Part shown: piece after piece, positions 2,863 through 50,214 of the stretch | Position numbering within the stretch: the first letter of the stretch is position 1 | How the letters are laid out: every line of letters starts with the position of its first letter | Notes under the pieces: model-generated | Databases searched by the model: none | Told to the model about the DNA's origin: nothing | What the model saw: the letters and a program-made list of their open reading frames with translations, nothing else | Position numbers and translations under genes: made by a program | Assembly (NCBI GenBank): GCA_947585115.1 | Contig: CANPWW010000002.1 | Location: 9,875 to 73,874, forward strand | Direction: 5' to 3' | Source: an uncultured Monoglobus sp. | GTDB lineage: Bacteria > Bacillota > Clostridia > Monoglobales > Monoglobaceae | Length of the DNA stretch: 64,000 nt

Positions 2863-3662
2863 TAAATCTCTCCTTTATCTGTCATTTTTATCAAAATCTT
2901 TGTCATTATCTCGTACACCTCTTTGGCGAGCGGGGCGCTTGACAGGCAGTCAAGGTGGCGCTTGACCGTGCCGAAGTCGCCGCGCGCCACCGGGCCCGTC
3001 AGCGCCGCTTTGGGGCCTTTTTCGGCTATGTTCCGCGCGTTGTTTATTATCAGCGGCGACAGCGCGGCGAGAGCCTCGCCGTCCGAAAATCCGCAGTCGC
3101 CCAACAGTCCGCAGGCGATATCCGAAAGTCCCACCGCGAAATTGCTGGCGAACACCGCCGCCGCGTGGTAGAGCGCCTTGTTCTTGGGCTTGATTATCTT
3201 GTATTTATTTCCGCAGACATCGAGCAGAGCCGCCGCCTTTTCGCAGTCTCCCTCAAGAGTGAAAAAAGCGTCCGAAAAATCGCAGCTCCGATCGCTCACC
3301 GCCAGCAGCATGTGAGCGCTCGCGGTCTCCGCTCCGCGCTCTTTCAGCGCCCTCAGGACTTCGCTTGAAAGCGCGCCCGAGGTGTGGCAGAATGTTTTGC
3401 CGCCGAGACTCAGATCAAGCGCGGCGATATTCTCCGCAACATCCTCTATTGCCCCGTCGGCGACCGTGACAAAAATCATGTCGCAGTCCGCGATAAGGGC
3501 GCCCATGCTCTCATAGGCGCGGCTGCCCGTGTATTCGGCCGCCTCCTCCGCGTGCGCTCTCGTCCGCGAGTGATAGCCGGCGAGGTCCGCGCCGCGGGAT
3601 TTAATATAACTACCGAAAGCGGTGCCGACTTTGCCGGCACCGATAAATCCTGTCTTATTCAT
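2862..3662 (-). CDS. Rossmann-like + DUF2520 oxidoreductase (PanG-like putative ketopantoate reductase)
   Basis: GFIGAGKVG Rossmann motif, HTSGA, YHAAAVFASN, ALTGPVARGD; start MNKTGF at 3662. Confidence 0.8.
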   Translation of the reverse strand: MNKTGFIGAGKVGTAFGSYIKSRGADLAGYHSRTRAHAEEAAEYTGSRAYESMGALIADCDMIFVTVADGAIEDVAENIAALDLSLGGKTFCHTSGALSSEVLRALKERGAETASAHMLLAVSDRSCDFSDAFFTLEGDCEKAAALLDVCGNKYKIIKPKNKALYHAAAVFASNFAVGLSDIACGLLGDCGFSDGEALAALSPLIINNARNIAEKGPKAALTGPVARGDFGTVKRHLDCLSSAPLAKEVYEIMTKILIKMTDKGEI

Positions 3663-5586
3663 CTCTGAAATGTCTCCTGATGCAGCGGAACTCGTCAAAA
3701 GCGGCGTATATGGGCTCGTCCTTTCCGCTGTAGGCGTACATGCCTACCATAGCGCCCGTGAAGCGCTTGCCCTTTTTGATCGCCTGGGCGCAGAGGTAGT
3801 AAATATTGTCCGCCGTGTATACTTTTCTGTAATTCGTTCCGTCTATGCTGTATGAGAACACGCGGCGCAGGCCGTCGGTCTCGATCTTTAAATATATAGT
3901 GTCTGTGAGGCCCGGCAGACCCACATAGTGGGTGAACCGCTCCACATCGTCTATCTTCTCGAACAGCTTGAGCGCGTAGCCCCTCTCGCCGTTTCTGTAA
4001 ATTCCGAAGGTAAAGTAGGTCAGCTCGTCGTAGTATCCGGTCAGGCCGTAGTTCTGCTCATAGTCAAGGTCGGGCAGGACGTCCATCTTGCAGATCACGT
4101 CGAAGTTAAAGTCGGGCTGGCGGCGCACAATAAAGTTGACCGCTTTTCTGGAGCTGAGCGGCTCCCTTGAGCCCTTTATGTACAGTCTGCTGTTCTCCAG
4201 TCTGAATCCGTCCTCCTCGGGGATTCCCGAGAACATCCAGAACGGCTTTATCTTTCCGTCGTCAAAGCTGTCGTAGCTGGCTCCGGGCTCGTTGGGCGCG
4301 GGCTTCAGCTTGGGCTTTTTCTGGAGAGTGCTGGGGCCGTTCAGATTATTCACGATCGGCCAGCCGTCGGGCGTCCATGTGATCGGGTCGAGGCACGTCT
4401 CGCGGCCGAGCATGGCGTATTTTCCGTCAAGACTCCTGTTGCAGAGGTACACCACGTACCAGTCGCCGTCTTGAGTCTGAACCGGCTTGGCGTGGCCCGC
4501 GCAGGTGATAGGCGCGGTGTAGTCGCGCTGCGTCAGTATCGGGTTGTAGGGGCAGGGCTCGTACACTCCCATCAGAGTCTTGCTGCGCGACACGGTCACG
4601 CAGTGCTGCTCCCCTGTGCCGCCCTCGGCCTGGAACAGATAGTAGTATCCGTCCTTGTGTATCAGATGCGGGCCCTCGGGGGCGCGCTTGTTGTCGCCGT
4701 AGTACAAAAGCTTCGCCTCGGAGATCTTTTCGGTGGCGTCCTCGTTGAGCTCAAAAATTCTTGCGCCGCGGTTCAGCAGCATGTAGCGTCTGCCGTCCAC
4801 ATCGGTGAACAGCGACGGGTCGATACCGTCCTCGTCGATAAACACGGGCTCGGAATACGGGCCCTCGGGCTTTTCGGACGACACGATTATCTGTCTGCGC
4901 TTCACTTTCTCGCTGTCGTTGTAGCGCAGAGTGGCCGTTATGTAAAACTTCCCGTTGTGGTACGATATATCGGGCGCCCAGTAGCCTCTGCCGCCTTCGA
5001 GACCGTCAAGGTGCGCCCACTCGGGGTTGGTTATGGCGTGGCCTATGCTCTGCCAATGCACCAGATCGGTCGAGTGTGAGATCGGTATGCAGGGGAAGAA
5101 CACGAACGATGAGTTCACCATATAGTAGTCCTCGCCCACGCGCACTATCGAGGGGTCGGCGTAGAATCCGCGGCGCACGGGGTTTTGGTACATATCCTCG
5201 AATTTGCAGCCGACCACCTGTTCAAAATATTTTTCTATATCGGCAAAGCCGTGCTCTCTTGCCAGCTCAAAAGGCGTTATCAGATGTCTGTCGCCCTGGC
5301 AGGGGTCAAGGCCCACGCGCTCCACAAAGTATTTGACTATTTCAAGATCGCCTGTCATGACCGCCTCGTGCAGCGCGCCGCGATGCCTGAAATCGCACTC
5401 GTTGAAGCTGGCGAAGGTGTATTCGACCAAAAACTTTACCCACTTCATATCGCCGGTCCTTATCATGTGGAACGCCGCGGATATACCGTTTTCGTCGCAC
5501 TCATCCACAAGTCTGGCGCTGTGGGAGAGCATCTCCTTGACGCCGTCCATATCCTGCCGTTTTATCAGGTCAATAAATTCACTCAT
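3655..5586 (-). CDS. Ankyrin-repeat + GH43 glycoside hydrolase (beta-xylosidase/arabinofuranosidase-like) with C-terminal beta-sandwich
   Basis: N-terminal ankyrin repeats (ALHEAVMTGDLEIVKYFVE); GH43 catalytic motifs ADPS, IDPS, PEGPH; no signal peptide. Confidence 0.9.
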   Translation of the reverse strand: MSEFIDLIKRQDMDGVKEMLSHSARLVDECDENGISAAFHMIRTGDMKWVKFLVEYTFASFNECDFRHRGALHEAVMTGDLEIVKYFVERVGLDPCQGDRHLITPFELAREHGFADIEKYFEQVVGCKFEDMYQNPVRRGFYADPSIVRVGEDYYMVNSSFVFFPCIPISHSTDLVHWQSIGHAITNPEWAHLDGLEGGRGYWAPDISYHNGKFYITATLRYNDSEKVKRRQIIVSSEKPEGPYSEPVFIDEDGIDPSLFTDVDGRRYMLLNRGARIFELNEDATEKISEAKLLYYGDNKRAPEGPHLIHKDGYYYLFQAEGGTGEQHCVTVSRSKTLMGVYEPCPYNPILTQRDYTAPITCAGHAKPVQTQDGDWYVVYLCNRSLDGKYAMLGRETCLDPITWTPDGWPIVNNLNGPSTLQKKPKLKPAPNEPGASYDSFDDGKIKPFWMFSGIPEEDGFRLENSRLYIKGSREPLSSRKAVNFIVRRQPDFNFDVICKMDVLPDLDYEQNYGLTGYYDELTYFTFGIYRNGERGYALKLFEKIDDVERFTHYVGLPGLTDTIYLKIETDGLRRVFSYSIDGTNYRKVYTADNIYYLCAQAIKKGKRFTGAMVGMYAYSGKDEPIYAAFDEFRCIRRHFRDE

Positions 5587-5784
5587 GTTCGCACCTCAAT
5601 GCTATAGTTTCTGAATATACATAAAGTATTTTAACAGGCATTAACATGAAATGCAATAGCTAAATTGTATATATTTTCACAAAATGAGCGTTGGATTTTT
5701 AACAATAAATATTTTTAGTTTAATTTGAGGTATACATAAAATAATAACCGGTTGCGCAATTTATATATGATTTACATAAATCTC

Positions 5785-5813
5785 TTGACAAAAGCGCAAT
5801 AATGATATATAAT
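5785..5813 (+). promoter_or_regulatory. Consensus sigma70/sigmaA promoter for candidate antisense RNA 1
   Basis: TTGACA (5785-5790), 17-nt spacer, TATAAT (5808-5813). Confidence 0.85.
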
Positions 5814-5819
5814 AATCAT

Positions 5820-5918
5820 AGAAAGAGAAACGGCAGAGCGTAAAAACGGTCAGCCGCTTCGGGAAGTATATAAAACAACTGCCTTTAGCTGCTAAACTTT
5901 AAAGGCGGTTGTGTTTTT
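5820..5918 (+). ncRNA. Candidate antisense/antitoxin sRNA 1 (~100 nt)
   Basis: Perfect promoter upstream, terminator hairpin plus T-run at the 3' end, no ORF; 27 nt at the 5' end are identical to the paralog at 44461-44487 (minus strand). Confidence 0.7.
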
Positions 5919-5919
5919 T
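5875..5919 (+). terminator. Intrinsic terminator of sRNA 1
   Basis: acaactgccttta...taaaggcggttgt hairpin followed by gtttttt. Confidence 0.75.
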
Positions 5920-6001
5920 ATTGCACAGATGGTGAAAATACTGTAAGTATCACAGCAATTACCATAAGAGCAAAAGCTATTTTGAAAAAAACTTTTTTCA
6001 T
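5918..6001 (-). CDS. 27-aa hydrophobic peptide MKKVFFKIAFALMVIAVILTVFSPSVQ (type I toxin-like)
   Basis: Manual translation; SD AAGGAGTG 7 nt upstream; single TM-like helix; same-length paralog at 44306-44389. Confidence 0.75.
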   Translation of the reverse strand: MKKVFFKIAFALMVIAVILTVFSPSVQ

Positions 6002-6177
6002 ATGCTATCACTCCTTTCTTTGTGTCTTAAACACGATGTTAAGTGTTTAGAAAGGAATGAAGCGACCAACCGTCTCTACGTTTCTATCTCTGCCTTTTAC
6101 GATTGCGCGTTTTATTCGCGCAAAGGTGTTTCTCCGCGCGAAACAGATCCGCACTTGCAGTTTTTGCTGCCACATAT

Positions 6178-6206
6178 ATAATAACATACTATGACAATTT
6201 TTTCAA
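6178..6206 (-). promoter_or_regulatory. Promoter of peptide mRNA 1
   Basis: TTGAAA-N17-TATTAT with TG extension; near-identical to 44111-44139. Confidence 0.7.
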
Positions 6207-6227
6207 GTAACAAATCGGTTACAGTTC

Positions 6228-6260
6228 AAAAGGCGCGCTGTATATATCGGCGCGCCTTTG
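6228..6260 (-). terminator. Terminator downstream of serpin
   Basis: aaaggcgcgc/gcgcgccttt inverted repeat with T-run on the minus strand. Confidence 0.65.
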
Positions 6261-6270
6261 ATTTAGAAGA

Positions 6271-8010
6271 TTACAGCTTACATATCCTGCCCATAAATAG
6301 GATCTCGCCGGATTTGCAGTCGCGTATTATGAATGTGAACGGGCGGTCAACGTTAAACTCTATCGGCTCGCTCGGATCAGGAGCCGCGGCTCCCGGAGCG
6401 GCCAAGACCGCCGTCGCCGCGGCGGCTTCGGAGCCTTCCTCATCAACGCTGATATATGTCTTGTGCAGCACTTTGTCGATATAAACGGAATACCCGTCGG
6501 GAACGCCCTCGATCATTTTTCCGAAATCCGCCCTGTTTTGATCAAACGCGGAGGCTATTCCCATGTCATTCAGATAATCCTTGAGCTCTTTTGAGGTCTC
6601 GACCTTGAATTTAGGCATTTTGAGCTTTACGCGGTTAAATTCGATCTTGTCAAAATATCGGTCATAATCAATATCTCCGCCGTCGTCAAGGCTTATGTAC
6701 ATTGAGGCGCCGCCACAGTACGGCAGCATTATCATGCTCAGTTTATCATCGCTGTAAACGCCGAAACTTTCGGTTTGACGCATAAAATCGACCGAGGACT
6801 CCGTGCCGTCAAAATTTTTGAAAATATCCTTCTTGGTAGAATCTTCGTTAAACTCGTCTACCCACGAGCCTTTAAAATACACCGCGTTCACCAGAGCCGC
6901 CAAAAAATCACCGTCGTCTGTTATCGTCGGGATCTTGCCGTTTGTCTTTTCGCTTGTCCACTCGTTGACGCGCCGCGCCGCGTCGCTGCCTCCGACGATC
7001 TCGCTCGTTCCGCTATAAAAATCGTTGATCGCTTTTTCAAACTCCGAGCCGAATTTCATTTTCGCGCCCGGAAAATAATCGCGGTTGAGCCAGATCGAAT
7101 TCGCGATGCTCAATTGAGCGGAGTCGATTTCGGAATAACGCTTTATCAGCTCCTTGACGCTCTTGTTATACTCGCCGAGATCATTTACTCCCAAAGCGGT
7201 GAGAATCTCCTTTTCGGTCTCGCCTTCCGCGCCGTTTGCGGCCATGGCCATGGCGATCTTTACGGACATCGGCGAAAACATATAATTTTCGCTCTTATCA
7301 AATCTCGAGTTCAGCTTATAGGCAAACGCGTTTTCGCTCTCGGACTCCGGCGTCGCCGTCGGCGCTCCGCTGCGCGAGATCAAGCTCTCCAAAAACGTGC
7401 CGCCGTCTTTTTTGCGCGTGTAAAGCAGGTTGCAGGCCATGACCGCGGCGTCTCCGCGCGTGATCTTGTCGCCGGGATCCGCCTTGACGCTCTCAGCCGC
7501 GGCGGTAAGCCGCTCATCGGGATCCGGCCTGAATTTGGCGGTTATTCCTATCCGTTCCGCCTCACTTATATAACCTTCGGGATAATTCAGCTGCGCAGCG
7601 GTTCCGGCGCTCTCGTACCAATAAAAGCGCGTGAGAGCGGTGACAAACTCGCCGTAGGTCACAAGCTCGGCGGGTCTGAACGTCCCGTCGGGATATCCGC
7701 TGACTATGCCTCGCTCGCATAACGCGCCCGCCGCGCCCTCGGCGTAGCTGCCCGCAAGATCGGAGAACACATTTCCGTCACCGTCGGGGTACGCGCCCAT
7801 GCGCGCGATAACCGCGGCTGTCTCGGCGCGGGTTATGCGCTCATCCTCTCTGAATGCGCCGTCGGGATCGCCGTTCATGACCGAGATGGATCTAAGCTCC
7901 GACACGGAAGCTCCGACTCTGTCACCGTCGTAGAGAGGCGCCGCAGCGGTGGGCAGCGCTGTCAGCGCGAGAGCAGCCGACGCGCACAGCGCCAATAATC
8001 TTTTTTTCAT
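6271..8010 (-). CDS. Secreted SLH-domain serpin
   Basis: Signal peptide MKKRLLALC (start 8010, AAGGAAAGG SD); SLH repeats (GDPDGAFREDERITRAE; GYPDGTFRP); serpin motifs FSPMS, NAVYFKGSW, EEGSEAAAAT hinge, VDRPFTF. Confidence 0.92.
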   Translation of the reverse strand: MKKRLLALCASAALALTALPTAAAPLYDGDRVGASVSELRSISVMNGDPDGAFREDERITRAETAAVIARMGAYPDGDGNVFSDLAGSYAEGAAGALCERGIVSGYPDGTFRPAELVTYGEFVTALTRFYWYESAGTAAQLNYPEGYISEAERIGITAKFRPDPDERLTAAAESVKADPGDKITRGDAAVMACNLLYTRKKDGGTFLESLISRSGAPTATPESESENAFAYKLNSRFDKSENYMFSPMSVKIAMAMAANGAEGETEKEILTALGVNDLGEYNKSVKELIKRYSEIDSAQLSIANSIWLNRDYFPGAKMKFGSEFEKAINDFYSGTSEIVGGSDAARRVNEWTSEKTNGKIPTITDDGDFLAALVNAVYFKGSWVDEFNEDSTKKDIFKNFDGTESSVDFMRQTESFGVYSDDKLSMIMLPYCGGASMYISLDDGGDIDYDRYFDKIEFNRVKLKMPKFKVETSKELKDYLNDMGIASAFDQNRADFGKMIEGVPDGYSVYIDKVLHKTYISVDEEGSEAAAATAVLAAPGAAAPDPSEPIEFNVDRPFTFIIRDCKSGEILFMGRICKL

Positions 8011-8111
8011 AACACTCACCTTTCCTTTGATCTGAAAATATATTAAAAACTTCACCTTACTTTATTAGACGACAAAAAGTAAAATAAAGTTCCCGTTTTT
8101 TGTAAAATAAT

Positions 8112-28307: not shown

Positions 28308-30548
28308 ATGAAACGTCTGTTTTTAATAGCAATTCTGTGTATCGCGCTGATCGTTCCGGCGCTGCCCGCTGCGGCGTATCCGCCCGACTCGGAATATAAC
28401 GTGTCGGACATGGCGTCCGCCAACATAACCGAGGAAACGCCAATGGGCGGTTTCACGATAATTCCGGCCACCGACGGCGGCGAGGCCGTCATGATCGACG
28501 GCAGCAAAAAGACCGGCTCGGTGACAAAGATCAAGTACACCAAGCGCCTCAAGACCGGCGCGACCGGCAGCTACGCCAACCGCGCCGTGCGCTTCTCGAC
28601 CGATGGCCCCGCGGTGCTTTATCTCGACTGCGGCTCGGCCAACAACGATAACAGCCGCACCGGCAAGATCATCGACAGCAATAACAATATTATTGAGTCG
28701 CAGGAAGTCAAACCCGGCATGGCGTACTACAAGTTTTTTGTGCAGGAGGCCGGAGACTACGCCTTTGTCAGCGAGGGCGGCGGAATCAACATATATTATC
28801 TGAAGCTGTCCTACGACCTGCCCGAGCCCGAGCCTGATTTTGAGGACTTAAAGCCCGTGACGGGCGAGCAGCTGAGCGAGATATACACCGCGCCGCTGGC
28901 GCCCGCAAACGGCAAGGGTACCAAGGATGAGCCGATGAGCGTGGCCTCGGCAATCGCCAACATCGCGTCCGGCGGAGTTATATATTGCGAGGGCAGATAT
29001 ATGTTTAACGACTGCCTCACCATACCTTTCGGCAACAACGGCGCGGAGGGCGCCGAAAAGCGCATCGAGTGCCCCGACGGAACTGTGTTTGACTTTTCCT
29101 ATGAGCCCTACGGCGGCAACGGCAGCGCCCGCGGCCTGCAGATGGACGGCAATTACTGGCACATCAAGGGGCTTAATGTATACATGGCGGCGGACAACGG
29201 CTTTTACGTGACGGGCAAGCACAACACCCTTGAGCTGTGCCGCGCCGAAGCCAACCGCGACACCGGAATACAGATCAGCCGCCGCTCTTCGGATCAGTCG
29301 AATTTTGGCGACTGGCCCAGCGACAATCTGATACTGAACTGCACGTCTTACAACAGCTTTGACCCGGACACGGGCGAGAACGCCGACGGCTTTGCCGCCA
29401 AGCTGACCTGCGGAAACGGCAACGTGTTTGACGGCTGCATCGCCTACAACAACTGTGACGACGGCTGGGACTGCTTTACCAAATCGGCCACGGGCCCGAT
29501 CGGAACCCTCGTGTTCCGCAACTGCGTGTCGTTCCGCAACGGACAGACCACCGACGGCGCTTTCACCGACAACAGCGACGGCAACGGCTTTAAGATGGGC
29601 GGCTCGAAAATAGCGGTCACCCACTACATGTACAACTGCATCTCGTTCGAAAACGCCAACCACGGCTTTACCGACAACTCGAACCCAGGCCCGATATATC
29701 TTTATAACTGCACCGCTTTTAACAACTCGCTCAAAGGCGGCACCAAAAAAAGCAATTTTGACTTCGCCAGAGACAGCGAAAATTCAAACAACACGATCGA
29801 AAACTGCCTGTCCTACACATCGCAGAAGATAGCGGCGGACAAGTTTTTGGGCACGATAAAGAACTCGGTCGTGTACAACAACAGCAAGGGCCTGTATTAC
29901 TACTATGAGGACTTTCCGCCGATCACCAACTGGAACGACAAGCTGGGCGAAGTCCTGCCCTCGTACACTATGGACACCGTCTCGGAATCAACGTTTGTTT
30001 CGGTCGAGACTCCGACTCTCGGCGCCGACGTTCACAAGCTCTGGAGAAACGAGGACGGCTCGATAAATCTGGGCGATTTTCTTAAAACAGCCGAGGGCAC
30101 GGCGTTCCGCGAGAAAAACATAGGCGCCGACCTCTCAAGCGCGCCGATCGATTATCCGACCGCGCCGCCCGAGCCGGGCGCCACGGCTGCCCCCACAGCG
30201 GAGCCGAGCGCCACGGAAACTCCCGCACCGGTGCCGGGCGCAAAATATGTTCTCGCTGCCGCTGCCGACGACGAGGCCGAAGGCATGTTCAACGTGCGTT
30301 TTGAAAACAATACAGGCGCGCAGATCGAGCCGTACATAGCGGCCGCCGCGTATAAGATAATAGACGGAAACGAGCTGCTTGTGGATTTTGAGGATGAGAT
30401 GATAACCGCCGACGGCGGCGCTGAGAATTTTAACATATCATTAAGCGGCGCCGCGAAAAACGGAGACTTTGACATAATCAGGATATTCGCTCTGAAAAAT
30501 TACGAAAATCCGATACCGCTCACCGACTGCGTAGAAATAAACAAATAA
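28308..30548 (+). CDS. Secreted PL9 pectate lyase with CBM77-like module, P/T/A linker and C-terminal module
   Basis: Signal peptide; ENADGFAAKL, DDGWD, GNGFKMGG, HGFTDN. Confidence 0.88.
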   Translation: MKRLFLIAILCIALIVPALPAAAYPPDSEYNVSDMASANITEETPMGGFTIIPATDGGEAVMIDGSKKTGSVTKIKYTKRLKTGATGSYANRAVRFSTDGPAVLYLDCGSANNDNSRTGKIIDSNNNIIESQEVKPGMAYYKFFVQEAGDYAFVSEGGGINIYYLKLSYDLPEPEPDFEDLKPVTGEQLSEIYTAPLAPANGKGTKDEPMSVASAIANIASGGVIYCEGRYMFNDCLTIPFGNNGAEGAEKRIECPDGTVFDFSYEPYGGNGSARGLQMDGNYWHIKGLNVYMAADNGFYVTGKHNTLELCRAEANRDTGIQISRRSSDQSNFGDWPSDNLILNCTSYNSFDPDTGENADGFAAKLTCGNGNVFDGCIAYNNCDDGWDCFTKSATGPIGTLVFRNCVSFRNGQTTDGAFTDNSDGNGFKMGGSKIAVTHYMYNCISFENANHGFTDNSNPGPIYLYNCTAFNNSLKGGTKKSNFDFARDSENSNNTIENCLSYTSQKIAADKFLGTIKNSVVYNNSKGLYYYYEDFPPITNWNDKLGEVLPSYTMDTVSESTFVSVETPTLGADVHKLWRNEDGSINLGDFLKTAEGTAFREKNIGADLSSAPIDYPTAPPEPGATAAPTAEPSATETPAPVPGAKYVLAAAADDEAEGMFNVRFENNTGAQIEPYIAAAAYKIIDGNELLVDFEDEMITADGGAENFNISLSGAAKNGDFDIIRIFALKNYENPIPLTDCVEINK

Positions 30549-44636: not shown

Positions 44637-47516
44637 ATGAGAAAAATATTATCCGCAATGCTGTGTTTGATCTTGTCGGTCTCGGCTGCGCCGCGGGCGG
44701 TGTTTTCGGAATCCGAAACCGTAACGATCACCGAAGCCTCAGGCTGGTTTGAATCGGCTTATGCCGAGTGGAGCGGATCGGGCATCGACGCCGTGAACGC
44801 GTATATCAAACCCGAGGGCGGCGAATACGCGCCTATCGACCGCGAACTTTTGCGCGAATATAAAAACGGAACTTGCTGCGTTGACGCGGTTGGGCTTTCG
44901 GCAGGAAGCTATCGAATAAAAATAGTTCCCGCGGAGAACGGCGCCGAGGACGAAAGTCTCTCGACGGAAACCGAAATACTCTCGGTCGGCTCTTTCCCGA
45001 GAGAGGGATTCGCTTTCAGCTCGCAATCCCCCGAAAAGGACGCGAGCGGCGGCTATAAGCCTGACGGAACGCCCAAAGACGACGCAGACATAATCTACGT
45101 CTCAAACGGCAACAAAGACCGCGTTATGATTGACGGGATACCCAAAGACGGCGTCGGACTTGTGAGCATATTCGACTTCCGCGAGCGGAACAAGATCACC
45201 ACGCCGCTGATCGTGCGCCTTATCGGTAAGGTTGACATGCCCGAAGGCATGCAAAAATATCTGCTCGGTATCCGCAACACTAAAAACGTGACAATAGAAG
45301 GCGTCGGCGAGGACGCGGCTGTACACGGGTGGGGAATAACGTTCAAGGAATCCTCGAATATTGAGCTGCGCAATTTCGCGATAATGTGGTACGGCGGCGG
45401 CACCGACAGCGACGCCACGGCCCTTGACGGAAATAACGACAATATCTGGATACACAACCTTGAATATTTCTACGGCGCTCACGGTCCCGACGAGGATCAG
45501 GGCAAAGGCGACGGCAGCATTGACATGAAAAACCAGTCGGACTATGTGACGATCTCATACAATCATTTCTGGGATTCGGGAAAGACCACATTCACCGACA
45601 GCCCCGACGGCGCCTCTGACAAAACCCACGTCACCTATCACCACAACCACTTTGACCACTCGGATTCGCGCCACCCCAGATGCGTGGGAAGCGACGTTCA
45701 TATGTACAACAACTATTATGACGGCGTTTCAAAATACGGCATAGGCGCTGCCAAGGGCTCCTGCATATTCGCCGAGAACAATTATTTCAGATACTGCGCC
45801 AGACCCATGATAATCTCAAGTCAGGGCAGCGACGTTTATAGCTCAAGCAAAAAGAATTACAGCGGCGACGGCACGCTGTCGGGACAATCGGGCGGAATGA
45901 TAAAAGCCTTCGGCAATCATATAGGAGAATACGAGAGGTTTTACACTCAGCTTGACACTCCGAGCGACTTGGCTCCGGGAGTAAACAACACCGGTCACTT
46001 TGACTGTTATCTTGTCTCAAACCGGGACGAAAAGGTCCCCGATACCGCCAAAGCGCTAAAGGGCGGCGCTGTGTATGACAACTTTGACACGTCGGCGGAT
46101 ATGTATGGCTACAGCGCCGAAACAGCCGAAAGCGCCGTCGAGACCGTTAAAAAATACGCGGGCCGAATGAACGGCGGAGATTTTGAATACACGTTCGACA
46201 ATTCGGTTCAGGACAAAAATTATGACACGATACCCGAACTTCAGACCTTGGTTGAAAACTATGACCCGCCGATCGCCAAAGTCGGCGGAGACGCGTCGCT
46301 CGCCATAGAGCAGCCGCCCGAGCCGTCAGCCGACAAGATCACGCACAATTTTACAACACAAGGCACCGCGAGCGGCGTGTTTGAAATAAAAGGCTCGATT
46401 ACCGACCTTTTCGGCATAATGCGATATGACGCGGTCAACTTGACAAAATCCCTCAAATTCGAGGGCAGCTCTTACATAAGATTCACGGCGGTACAGCGCG
46501 GTATAATGACCCTGCTCGCCAATCCGTACCGCGGTTCGGTCAATGTTAAAGTGAACAACGAGGTCATCCGCGGCGATCCCGAGACGGGGCTTATACAATT
46601 TAACGTCGAGCCCGGCGAGACGTATAACATCACGCGAGACAGCGTTTCGTATCTGTTCTATCTGGTTCTGGAATATGACCCGAACAGCCCGATGATAACG
46701 CCGCTCCCCACGCAGGCTCCCACAACCGCGCCCACCGCGAAACCGGGAAATCCGACGCCCAAACCCGACGGCGGTTCCGATATTCCCGCAAGCGGCGGAT
46801 ATATCCATAATTTCACCGAAAGCGATATGAGAAGCGATTTTTACACAATAAGCGGCGCCACATCAAAGGACAGAGGTTCTTTGGAATACGGCGGAATGAC
46901 GCTCACAAACGCTTTTAAGCTGGGAAGCAGTTCAAGCATAAGCTTCACCGCTCCGGGAGACGGCGAAATGCTTTTGGTTTTCGGCTCCTCGAGCACGCCG
47001 ACGGCAAAAATCAACGGTACGGCTTTGACGGGCAGCGGAAACACACTGACGTTTCCCGTAAAGGGCGGCGAGAGTTATAAGATTACCAAAAACAGCGGCG
47101 AGCAGCTTATATACTACATGGCGCTGACTCTTGACGCGGCGCCGACAAACGCTCCGCCAACCGAGGAGCCCGCGGTAACAACCGAGCCGAGCGACGCTCC
47201 ACCGACTGAGACGCCGACCGAGGAACCGAAAAACGGCGGATATTCGATAAAAGGAGCCGACAGTTCAGACAGCGGTCTGACCGCGGCCGTGGAATACAGC
47301 GGAGTCGGCACGGCGCCGAAAGCCAAACTGCTTGCCGCAAAATACAAAAACGGCGCGCTTACCGCCTTTAGTGACACGGTTGAATTAAACGGAAGCGGCG
47401 AATACTTTATTGAAAACTTCGCGGCGCAAAACGGCGAAAACATCGTTTTGTTTATTTGGAGCGGTACCGACAAGATAAAGCCGCTGTGTGAAAAATTTGA
47501 ATTAAATAATAATTAA
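44637..47516 (+). CDS. Secreted PL1 pectate lyase with two CBM77-like modules, PT linkers and C-terminal module
   Basis: Signal peptide; NIWIHN, GDGSIDMK, VTISYNHF, YHHNHFDHSDSRHPR. Confidence 0.9.
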   Translation: MRKILSAMLCLILSVSAAPRAVFSESETVTITEASGWFESAYAEWSGSGIDAVNAYIKPEGGEYAPIDRELLREYKNGTCCVDAVGLSAGSYRIKIVPAENGAEDESLSTETEILSVGSFPREGFAFSSQSPEKDASGGYKPDGTPKDDADIIYVSNGNKDRVMIDGIPKDGVGLVSIFDFRERNKITTPLIVRLIGKVDMPEGMQKYLLGIRNTKNVTIEGVGEDAAVHGWGITFKESSNIELRNFAIMWYGGGTDSDATALDGNNDNIWIHNLEYFYGAHGPDEDQGKGDGSIDMKNQSDYVTISYNHFWDSGKTTFTDSPDGASDKTHVTYHHNHFDHSDSRHPRCVGSDVHMYNNYYDGVSKYGIGAAKGSCIFAENNYFRYCARPMIISSQGSDVYSSSKKNYSGDGTLSGQSGGMIKAFGNHIGEYERFYTQLDTPSDLAPGVNNTGHFDCYLVSNRDEKVPDTAKALKGGAVYDNFDTSADMYGYSAETAESAVETVKKYAGRMNGGDFEYTFDNSVQDKNYDTIPELQTLVENYDPPIAKVGGDASLAIEQPPEPSADKITHNFTTQGTASGVFEIKGSITDLFGIMRYDAVNLTKSLKFEGSSYIRFTAVQRGIMTLLANPYRGSVNVKVNNEVIRGDPETGLIQFNVEPGETYNITRDSVSYLFYLVLEYDPNSPMITPLPTQAPTTAPTAKPGNPTPKPDGGSDIPASGGYIHNFTESDMRSDFYTISGATSKDRGSLEYGGMTLTNAFKLGSSSSISFTAPGDGEMLLVFGSSSTPTAKINGTALTGSGNTLTFPVKGGESYKITKNSGEQLIYYMALTLDAAPTNAPPTEEPAVTTEPSDAPPTETPTEEPKNGGYSIKGADSSDSGLTAAVEYSGVGTAPKAKLLAAKYKNGALTAFSDTVELNGSGEYFIENFAAQNGENIVLFIWSGTDKIKPLCEKFELNNN

Positions 47517-47535: not shown

Positions 47536-50214
47536 ATGAAAAAGAAGATATGTTTGATTTTGTCAATGCTCATGATTTTGGCGTCGGTTCCCTGCAGGAT
47601 CGTCGGCGCGGCGGACACGGTCACGATAACGGCCTCAAACGGCTGGCTCGAATCGGCCTACGCCGAGTGGACGCCGATTGACGGAGCCGACGGCTACAAC
47701 GTCTACAGCAAAAAGTCGGGCGGTGAGTATGTTAAGCTGGACGCTCCCCTTGTGCGCGAGTATCCCGATTATTTCCGCGCAGACGCGCTCGGGCTCTCGG
47801 CCGGCGATTATACGCTTAAGATCGTCCCGGTAAAGGGCGGCGCAGAGATCGCGGACGCGGCGGCGGAGACCGGAACTCTCACAGTTTCGGCGTATGACAG
47901 AAGCGGATTCGCGTTTTCGAAAAACTCGCCCGTCGGCACCGCGAGCGGAGCCTATAACGACGACGGAACATTAAAAGAAAACGCCGACGTTATATATGTC
48001 ACAAACGGCAACAAGGACACGGTGACGGTAAACGGCGACCCCTCGCAGGGAATAGGCCTGCCCGAGATACTGCATTACCGCCAGCAGAAAAAGATCACCA
48101 AGCCTTTGGCGGTGCGCCTTATCGGCAGGGTCGAGGATCCCGCGGGACTTACGCGCCACACAGTTCAGATACAGGGCTGGGAGCAGAAAACCACGCCCAT
48201 GGTCGGCCAGAGCCTGACGATCGAGGGCGTGGGAGATGACGCCGCGGTTTACGGCTGGCTGATGTGCCTGAAACGCATGGTCAACGTTGAAATACGAAAC
48301 CTGGCCGTTATGTACGCCGGAGAGGGCGCCGAGGCCTCCTCGATTGAGATGGACACCGACAACTTTAACATCTGGGTCCACAACTGCGACTTTTTGTACA
48401 ACGCGCCCGGAAAGGATGCCGACCAGGCGAAAGGCGACGGCGCGGTTGCGTTCAAGTCGGGATCGAGCTATGTGACGGTCTCGTATAACCACATGTGGGA
48501 CCTGGGCAAAAACTTTGTCTCGGGCGGCCCGTGGGAAAACAGCAATATGTACAGTCCAGAGGCTCATTATTACGCCACATACCACCACAACTGGTTCGAC
48601 CACGGCGATTCGCGCATGCCGCGCTGCGTGGTGGGCGACAATCACGTTTACAACAACTACTATGACGGCGTCGCCATGTACGGCATAGGCGCGGCGATGA
48701 AAACCTCGGTTTTCTCCGAGTGCAACTATTTCCGCCACACAAACCGCCCGATGCTTATCGCCTCTCAAGGTAGCGATGTGTATAACAGCGGCAGAAATGA
48801 TTATATGGGCAGCGACGGCGACGGAAAGGGTACCCTTTCGGGTCAAATGGGAGGCATGATAAAATCATTCGGCGATGTGTCCATAGATCAGGAAACCTTA
48901 TGGTTCTACGGCAACGAAAAAGATACCGGCCAGTTTGACGCCTACGAAGCGAAATCCCGCGATGAGCGCGTGCCGGACAGCGTCAAAGCGCTGAAGGGCG
49001 ACCCTCAAGGATTTGGAACATATGACAACTTTGACACCGATCCCGACATTATGTATGAGTATACGTCGGAGTCCGCGGAGCAGGCGGTCGAGACCGTCAA
49101 GAAATACGCGGGCCGCGTTGAGGGCGGAGATTTCGAGTGGACGTTTGACAACGCGGTCGATGACACTCACCACGGCATAAACCAGGCGCTGCTTGACAAG
49201 ATAACGAACTACAAATCGAGCGTGGTCTCGGTGGGCGGCGGACTTCCGCTGATCCCGCCCGAGCCCGAGCCGACGGCGACGCCCGATCCCGCGGCGACAT
49301 CCGACCCAAGCGCCACGGCAAAGCCCACAAGCGCGCCCGTTGCGCCTCCCGAGGGAGATGTTAAGCCGATACCCGTCGGCGCGGACAGCTTTGCCAAAGA
49401 CTGGAACGGCGGACAGAGCATGTCGGCGGGCGACATATCCGCAGACGGATATGTGGGCTGCTACAAAGGCGGCGGCAACAGCTACAAGAGCAACAGTTTC
49501 AGCGTGGACGGTGTTTCGATAACAAGAGGCTATCAGGCAAAGAAAGTCGACAGCCGCTCGTTCTATATAATCCCCGAAAGCGAGTGTATGATCACCGTTT
49601 ACTTTTACTCTGGCGGCACCAACACGCTGGGTCTGTACTTAAATCCGTCGGGCGAGCCTGACGCGGTGTGCGCTCCCGACCATGGCGGCGGCGACTACTC
49701 GTTCACCTATCACTTTGAGAATGCGGGTTCCGCCCTCTATATCGCGAGTCCGATGGGCGACATAAACATTGCCGGAGTATCGGTTCGCGCGGTGCCCGGC
49801 GGCTCGACAGCGGAGCCCACCAAAGAGCCTGCCGCAACATCGGAACCCACAAAAGAGCCTGCCGCAACGGCCGAGCCCACAAAAGAACCTAGCGAGCCTT
49901 CAAGCGCTCCCTCAGCCGAGCCTCCCGCAACGCAGGCGCCCGAGGCGAAGGGATATTCCGTTATAAGCGCGGAAACAGGCGCGGACGGACTGACCGCCAA
50001 AGTTGATTATATCGGCGCCGCGGCGCCCGAGGCGCGGCTGATAGCCGCCAAATACAAGGACGGCGCGCTGAGCGGAATTAAAGACGTAGAAATAAAAGGC
50101 GCGGGAGACTACGCTATACCCGATTTTACATTGAGCGAAGGCGAAACATACGCGCTCTACATATGGAGCGATCTAAACGGCATAAAACCGTACAGCGAAA
50201 AGTTTGAAAAATAA
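47536..50214 (+). CDS. Secreted PL1 pectate/pectin lyase paralog with beta-sandwich module, PT linker and C-terminal module
   Basis: Signal peptide; NIWVHN, VTVSYNHM, YHHNWFDHGDSRMPR; clear paralogy with the upstream gene. Confidence 0.9.
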   Translation: MKKKICLILSMLMILASVPCRIVGAADTVTITASNGWLESAYAEWTPIDGADGYNVYSKKSGGEYVKLDAPLVREYPDYFRADALGLSAGDYTLKIVPVKGGAEIADAAAETGTLTVSAYDRSGFAFSKNSPVGTASGAYNDDGTLKENADVIYVTNGNKDTVTVNGDPSQGIGLPEILHYRQQKKITKPLAVRLIGRVEDPAGLTRHTVQIQGWEQKTTPMVGQSLTIEGVGDDAAVYGWLMCLKRMVNVEIRNLAVMYAGEGAEASSIEMDTDNFNIWVHNCDFLYNAPGKDADQAKGDGAVAFKSGSSYVTVSYNHMWDLGKNFVSGGPWENSNMYSPEAHYYATYHHNWFDHGDSRMPRCVVGDNHVYNNYYDGVAMYGIGAAMKTSVFSECNYFRHTNRPMLIASQGSDVYNSGRNDYMGSDGDGKGTLSGQMGGMIKSFGDVSIDQETLWFYGNEKDTGQFDAYEAKSRDERVPDSVKALKGDPQGFGTYDNFDTDPDIMYEYTSESAEQAVETVKKYAGRVEGGDFEWTFDNAVDDTHHGINQALLDKITNYKSSVVSVGGGLPLIPPEPEPTATPDPAATSDPSATAKPTSAPVAPPEGDVKPIPVGADSFAKDWNGGQSMSAGDISADGYVGCYKGGGNSYKSNSFSVDGVSITRGYQAKKVDSRSFYIIPESECMITVYFYSGGTNTLGLYLNPSGEPDAVCAPDHGGGDYSFTYHFENAGSALYIASPMGDINIAGVSVRAVPGGSTAEPTKEPAATSEPTKEPAATAEPTKEPSEPSSAPSAEPPATQAPEAKGYSVISAETGADGLTAKVDYIGAAAPEARLIAAKYKDGALSGIKDVEIKGAGDYAIPDFTLSEGETYALYIWSDLNGIKPYSEKFEK
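49813..49890 (+). repeat. 30-bp intragenic tandem repeat (EPTKEPAAT[S/A]), ~2.6 copies
   Basis: gagcccac(c/a)aaagagcctgccgcaac repeated. Confidence 0.8.

Follow-up and report, generated by a model that had tools for sequence, protein, structure and literature searches.

What is the stretch of about 90 residues with which three secreted pectate lyases of a gut Monoglobus end, and what does it do for them? The question is raised by a 64,000-nucleotide piece of DNA from an uncultured Monoglobus sp. (contig CANPWW010000002.1 of assembly GCA_947585115.1, positions 9,875 to 73,874), which is referred to here as the window. One lyase of family PL9 and two of family PL1 (PL1a and PL1b) are encoded in it on the forward strand, each with a typical signal peptide at the N-terminus and each with the segment in question, the end module, at the other end of the chain. 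A preliminary description of the window had treated the three segments as one conserved terminal β-module and had suggested that it serves as a shared docking or secretion tag. It can now be said with near certainty, as regards homology and fold, that the segments are copies of one domain family: a self-folding, seven-stranded, immunoglobulin (Ig)-like β-sandwich of about 90 residues, joined by Pro/Thr-rich linkers and shuffled among extracellular proteins of the Monoglobus type. It is an accessory module and probably a binding one.

The relationship between the modules of PL1a and PL1b is evident from pairwise comparison (50% identity, BLASTP E 5e-28). The PL9 module gave no significant BLASTP match to either of them, and the PL9 copy of the window, taken alone, was not significant against a two-sequence hidden Markov model (HMM) or against a 22-sequence family HMM. 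With the latter it scored 0.8 bits, yet the alignment was colinear over the whole module; hhalign with what was essentially the single PL9 sequence returned P = 0.0016. The link between the PL9 and PL1 modules was resolved by orthologue-based profiles only. Using the full PL9 protein as query, 15 full-length orthologues with 54–95% identity were found, among them WP_412606992.1 of Monoglobus pectinilyticus. The end modules of these orthologues are less derived than the window copy, mostly reading KVFAW where the window has RIFAL. In an hhalign comparison, a profile of the 15 orthologue modules and the PL1-type family shared 89 aligned columns, with a probability of 97.5% and an E-value of 8.5e-12, and the PL1-type HMM scored the orthologue modules at up to 31.8 bits. 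Against a combined family HMM, all three window copies reach 72–86 bits over the full ~90 residues. The envelopes of this HMM (30243–30545, 47238–47510 and 49951–50211) agree to within one codon with the module limits of the preliminary description, and a search of all six frames of the 64 kb window with it gave no further copy. The BLASTP result and the alignment of orthologue profiles thus uphold the earlier view that one homologous folded module is carried by unrelated enzyme families. An origin of the similarity by chance or from low complexity was rejected on the alignment statistics and the confident predicted folds. Word-indexed protein searches with the isolated modules gave 0 and 1 match, and a DNA-pattern scan of metagenomes with the PL9 module found no relative.

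The fold was predicted with AlphaFold2, using the family alignment as input. The PL1b module was modelled as an all-β domain with a mean predicted local distance difference test score (pLDDT) of 96.4 and a predicted template modelling score (pTM) of 0.87, and the PL9 module as seven strands with pLDDT 90.5 and pTM 0.83; the β-nature proposed earlier from the letters is also that of both models. These contain six to seven strands and, in the PL9 copy only, a single helix of four residues; the order of the seven strands is identical in the two. A Foldseek comparison of the module models with the PDB returned nothing below E 1e-3. The best matches were Ig/fibronectin type III (FnIII)-like accessory domains of GH2 and GH3 glycosidases, C2 and UNC119 sandwiches, and transglutaminase/factor XIII barrels, with 7pjj as the shared match (TM 0.45–0.69, 9–17% identity, rmsd 4–7 Å, E 2e-3 to 2e-2). 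Such values mean a resemblance of fold class and not a demonstrable homology, and on the models an Ig-like or E-set class is plausible.

Searches of the curated databases were in agreement with this. None of the three modules matched Pfam or NCBIfam even at E ≤ 10, and PDB searches with the single sequences and with both profiles gave chance-level matches only. When 21 PL1-type members were compared with Pfam, the sub-threshold matches were scattered and mostly to Ig-type families (Big_6, FlgD_ig, CARDB, Gmad2). Membership of DUF4430 was considered and judged too sparse, at 2 of the 21 members with a best E of 4e-4. Literature searches found no description of the module. It is a generic Ig-like β-sandwich that belongs to no curated family, and Pfam, NCBIfam and the PDB contain no representative of it. 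As a family it is new; as a kind it is ordinary.

Purifying selection acts on the module. Between the window and orthologues from metagenome-assembled genomes (MAGs) of Monoglobus, dN/dS is 0.20–0.31 for the PL1a module and 0.08–0.24 for that of PL1b. The module is retained in all orthologues of PL1a, PL1b and PL9, and its length is constant among the PL9 orthologues, where that of the linker is highly variable. Across 38 collected members the near-invariant columns are Y2, A7, A33, Y35, W72 and P80, which gives a family signature of Y2, A7, AA-Y (33–35), [FY]-x-W (70–72) and P80. The motif that had been noted earlier in the window (Y near the start, AAxYK, G..L, [LI][FY][IA][WL], xP[LY] and a terminal E) falls on columns that are conserved in these 38 members. 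In the two central strands (residues 30–35 and 67–72) hydrophobic or aromatic residues are conserved on either face, a hint of a functional surface; the second face would be a binding surface or else lie under the conserved C-terminal segment. The window copies follow the signature except at W72 of PL9, where Leu replaces the invariant Trp (RIFAL, ~30480–30494, +). The same replacement is found in the two nearest orthologues, P0030 and P0031, and Trp is present in the other 35 members; the change is either a tolerated drift of the core or an altered binding face. Strand 2 of the PL9-type modules also ends in an invariant N-x-T (NNT; window ~30303–30314, +), in place of which the PL1-type modules have Y-x-G. 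All 38 collected modules are acidic, with a median pI of 4.1 and a median net charge of -8.

The range of the family was surveyed with the PL1a/PL1b profile in an exhaustive HMMER search that covered 1.84 billion cluster representatives and yielded 28 proteins at E ≤ 1e-3. Five were set aside as artefacts, which left 23 representatives: P0005, a low-complexity repeat, and P0013, with WD40-like repeats, were dropped on inspection, and P0017, P0019 and P0025 because they gave weak partial matches only. The clusters found in this way, at 50% identity, number about two dozen. Next to the module stand PL1, PL9, CE8 pectinesterase, GH95+CE8 and GH3 domains, but also domains outside the carbohydrate-active enzymes (CAZymes), namely an S8 peptidase, a BspA-type leucine-rich repeat (LRR) protein, a GLUG-motif protein and Listeria-Bacteroides-repeat proteins; several host proteins have no recognisable domain. 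There is usually one copy per protein. The family members that were traced, which are some of the representatives, all come from Monoglobus-type gut genomes, and a restriction to Monoglobus is accordingly provisional. The nearest genomic relatives of the PL1a–PL1b tandem are Monoglobus MAGs from rabbit gut, in which the module is kept on both genes; orthologous copies of the PL1a module are kept in four such loci (L001–L004). The names Monoglobus pectinilyticus (WP_412606992.1) and Candidatus Monoglobus occur among the proteins in the clusters of PL9 orthologues. In other Clostridia, the PL9 homologues are without the module and have Big_4, CBM2, CBM77 or dockerin domains instead.

The position of the module within its hosts is variable. 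It lies at the extreme C-terminus in the three window proteins and in all their orthologues. Beyond these genes the premise of a conserved terminal tag fails: the module is C-terminal in 11 of the 23 representatives, internal in eight and directly behind the signal peptide in four, so that 12 of 23 are internal or N-terminal. The preliminary description had expected a profile search to place the copies at C-termini, which holds for these 11 only. The internal copies have Pro/Thr linkers on both sides and further CBM77-like modules downstream. Single Monoglobus MAGs hold the module both terminally and internally; in MAGs with terminal copies, other arrangements are seen in P0003 (Lapin-014 bin25), P0007 (Lapin-022 bin79) and the LRR protein P0012 (Lapin-012 bin102). 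As a separate observation, a sortase gene (L010, 1841–2584) of Lapin-014 bin25 lies directly upstream of a 1387-residue PL1 protein (3001–7164) with an internal module. The MAG of P0015 encodes, 5 kb downstream (L006, 16894–19495), a protein of 2415 residues with S-layer homology (SLH) and pectinesterase domains, and giant SLH-anchored pectin enzymes hence coexist with module-bearing proteins.

The explanation that is ranked first, and tentatively preferred, is that the end module is a putative non-catalytic, glycan-targeting domain comparable to a carbohydrate-binding module (CBM). A binding role is the simplest one because a folded domain sits at the end of the chain on a long flexible tether. 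The CBM-like role is placed first since most of the identifiable hosts are enzymes of pectin or other plant glycans (PL1, PL9, CE8, GH95+CE8, GH3), since the module is interleaved with CBM77-type modules, and since PL9 homologues of other Clostridia bear CBMs instead. At the tip of its tether, the module would hold the enzyme on a glycan surface, and the lyase would then act close to its substrate. The putative target would most probably be part of the plant cell wall or of the pectic matrix, but not bare polyanionic homogalacturonan. The strongly acidic character of all copies speaks against direct electrostatic binding of the latter. Several further observations weigh against a CBM-like role. 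None of the top Foldseek matches is annotated as a carbohydrate-binding module, and hosts such as the BspA-LRR, GLUG and Listeria-Bacteroides-repeat proteins and the S8 peptidase are unusual for a substrate-specific CBM. PL1a is already equipped with two CBM77 copies. The loss of the invariant Trp from the PL9 copy of the window would be tolerable if this residue is buried and damaging if it forms a ligand platform.

The obvious family for comparison is CBM77 (PF18283), whose modules are known to bind pectin. Both are all-β, non-catalytic modules of ~90–110 residues, Pro/Thr-linked to PL1 and PL9 enzymes of gut Clostridia, and the end module occurs in the same proteins, adjoining CBM77. However, the end module has no sequence match to it, although the same scan finds two CBM77 copies in PL1a (E 1.9e-42). 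CBM77 is reportedly a basic, lysine-rich binder, whereas the end module is acidic, is also attached to non-CAZyme proteins and is a putative carbohydrate binder only.

The alternative ranked second, which we regard as possible, is a tether to the cell surface. The module would bind either the cell's own envelope (a wall polymer or the S-layer) or a receptor module that belongs to an SLH-anchored scaffold, whereby enzymes devoid of SLH domains would stay on the cell, as a functional analogue of the dockerin or of the X2 modules of scaffoldins. The distribution is indeed dockerin-like, in that lyases, esterases, LRR, GLUG and repeat proteins and a peptidase, all secreted and functionally unrelated, share the module within the same genomes, and there is a C-terminal bias (11/23) behind Pro/Thr-rich linkers. 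The three lyases are devoid of any other anchor, while their genome does encode SLH proteins, such as the SLH-bearing serpin at 6271–8055. An acidic surface would be compatible with protein–protein or Ca2+-mediated docking. On the other hand, no receptor was identified, and no whole Monoglobus proteome was scanned for one. The fold is all-β and has no calcium-binding repeats, the module occurs in single copy whereas most wall-binding modules are tandem, and it is found at internal and N-terminal positions and among the CBM-like modules of enzymes. Furthermore, the hosts P0010 and P0020 also give weak SLH matches, which would make a second anchor redundant.

The type I dockerin (PF00404) is likewise short, often C-terminal and common to many unrelated secreted proteins of one organism, and the end module stands where some PL9 homologues of other Clostridia have a dockerin. 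A dockerin, however, is a helical, duplicated Ca2+-binding motif of ~70 residues; the end module is a seven-strand β-sandwich for which no cohesin-like partner is known. No Pfam match to the dockerin repeat was obtained for the three modules at E ≤ 10 or for 21 members at E ≤ 1, and PF00404 was found in other PL9 homologues. SLH (PF00395) matches neither the modules nor any other part of the three lyases and is found in the neighbouring serpin. The earlier statement that the segment is not an SLH, dockerin, LPXTG or choline-binding element therefore stands, there being no Pfam or NCBIfam match at E ≤ 10 and no LPXTG at the C-termini. Closer in shape are the X2 or Ig-like 'hydrophilic' modules of clostridial scaffoldins (CBM_X2, PF03442), which are also Ig-like β-sandwiches of ~90 residues from plant-cell-wall-degrading Clostridia. 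X2 modules are said to bind both cell-wall material and polysaccharide, and the same ambiguity between cell wall and polysaccharide applies to the end module. No sequence relationship between the two was detected, and X2 is a module of scaffoldins and some cellulases rather than of pectinases. As for the docking or anchoring function that had been suggested for the end module, it is at this stage neither supported nor excluded. Decidedly unlikely is the more specific proposal that the module is the enzyme-borne half of a docking system peculiar to Monoglobus and unrelated to cohesin–dockerin, an all-β dockerin analogue through which lyases, esterases, proteases and LRR proteins would be attached to a receptor with an SLH anchor and so build up a pectin-degrading complex on the cell surface.

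Third in rank, and slightly less likely than the tether, is a passive structural Ig-like domain without a ligand of its own, which would act as a spacer, a helper of folding or solubility, or a protease-resistant cap. This is suggested by the closest structural matches, the FnIII- and Ig-like accessory domains of GH2 and GH3 enzymes and the β-barrels of transglutaminases (E-set type), which are non-binding, by the weak and scattered Pfam matches to Ig-type families, and by the promiscuous host range. Yet a spacer at the end of the chain, after a flexible linker of 25–60 residues, spaces nothing. The strong conservation (dN/dS as low as 0.08; Tyr, Trp and Pro hardly varying) and the conserved faces of the central strands are also difficult to reconcile with a passive role.

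Least tenable is a C-terminal secretion or sorting signal, resembling the C-terminal domain (CTD) of the type IX secretion system (T9SS) or a substrate of a sortase or of another sorting system, which would be recognised and perhaps removed during export: the CTD is also a small C-terminal β-sandwich on diverse secreted proteins, and the window proteins and their orthologues all carry the module at the extreme end, but 8 of the 23 representatives have it internally and 4 at the N-terminus, sometimes within one genome, the module has neither an LPXTG nor a hydrophobic tail nor a match to any sorting domain in Pfam or NCBIfam, and its host is a Gram-positive-type member of the class Clostridia whereas T9SS is a system known from Bacteroidota. 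The T9SS-like signal of the preliminary description is ruled out by this variable position, and export of the lyases is explained by their N-terminal signal peptides. By observation, the end module is not a member of CBM77, CBM_X2, dockerin, SLH or T9SS-CTD; by analogy, it may work most like the small accessory β-sandwiches (CBM or X-module) of multi-modular clostridial enzymes.

The coordinates of the three genes and of their end regions are collected in Table 1.

Table 1. Lyase genes, linkers and end modules in the 64,000-nucleotide window
Feature	Position	Strand	Details
PL9 pectate lyase gene, 746 aa	28308..30548	+	Signal peptide, ~160-aa N-terminal module, PL9 beta-helix, linker, end module
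PL9 linker, Pro/Thr/Ala/Glu-rich, before end module	30165..30239	+	Sequence PTAPPEPGATAAPTAEPSATETPAPVPG
PL9 C-terminal module, 102 aa, divergent family member	30240..30545	+	Combined HMM 74.7 bits; AlphaFold2 pLDDT 90.5
PL1a pectate lyase gene, 969 aa from TTG	44607..47516	+	PL1 domain, 2x CBM77, linker, end module
Second CBM77 copy of PL1a, residues 730-838	46794..47120	+	Pfam PF18283, best stretch; just upstream of end module
PL1a linker, Pro/Thr/Glu-rich, before end module	47127..47237	+	Sequence DAAPTNAPPTEEPAVTTEPSDAPPTETPTEEPKNG
PL1a C-terminal module, 92 aa	47238..47513	+	Combined HMM 86.3 bits
PL1b pectate lyase gene, 892 aa	47536..50214	+	PL1 domain, divergent CBM77-like region (~591-745), linker, end module
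PL1b linker, long, Pro/Thr/Glu/Ala-rich	49768..49950	+	Sequence ...TKEPAATSEPTKEPAATAEPTKEPSEPSSAPSAEPPATQAPEAK
PL1b C-terminal module, 87 aa, reference copy for structure model	49951..50211	+	Combined HMM 72.2 bits

The PL9 enzyme matches Pel9A-like_beta_helix and Beta_helix in Pfam and PelX-like in NCBIfam (E 2.8e-41). Its N-terminal module of ~160 residues (residues 24–185, window 28377–28862, +) is without a Pfam match and is closed by the motif GGINIYYLKLSYD, which recalls the ends of CBM77-like modules. PL1a and PL1b are tandem paralogues, and both match Pectate_lyase_4. For PL1a this match has E 3.9e-27, and CBM77 is matched over two stretches with E 1.9e-42. The signal peptide of PL1a begins at Met11 (MRKILSAML...), with which residue 1 of PL1b aligns, and the true start of PL1a is for this reason probably near 44637. 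Residues 591–891 of PL1b align at 33% identity (E 9e-31) to residues 699–965 of PL1a, a stretch that comprises the second CBM77 together with the linker and end module. The region ~591–745 of PL1b (window 49306–49770, +) has no Pfam match; judged by its sequence, it is probably a divergent CBM77-like module, and it is found again in the family fragment P0006. A linker rich in Pro, Thr, Glu and Ala precedes the end module in all three lyases, as had been described before. The proteins end in ...PLTDCVEINK (PL9), ...PLCEKFELNNN (PL1a) and ...PYSEKFEK (PL1b), with no LPXTG motif or membrane anchor at these C-termini.

Other genes of the window are of some interest in their own right. The serpin (Pfam Serpin, E 6e-86; window 6271–8055, −) combines its inhibitor domain with an S-layer homology domain, as a cell-surface-anchored protease inhibitor. 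A GH43 + GH43_C2 enzyme (3655–5586, −) has N-terminal ankyrin repeats, which is an unusual combination for a bacterial glycosidase. On the same strand, at 37503–41188, there are a gene for a BlaR1-type M56 peptidase/sensor (39515–41188) and then one for a 665-residue WG-repeat protein (37503–39500).

Monoglobus counts as a specialist for pectin in the mammalian gut, and the targeting of its secreted pectinases is only partly understood; published work on the genus stresses enzymes that are anchored by SLH domains. Proteins with the end module form a second secreted set, which is SLH-free. A profile of the family would annotate ~90 currently blank residues in dozens of large proteins from MAGs. 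If the module binds the cell or a scaffold, it would reveal a novel mode in which Gram-positive gut bacteria arrange their extracellular enzymes. If it binds a plant glycan, a CBM family would be newly founded on it, and the module would be of use as a probe or fusion tag.

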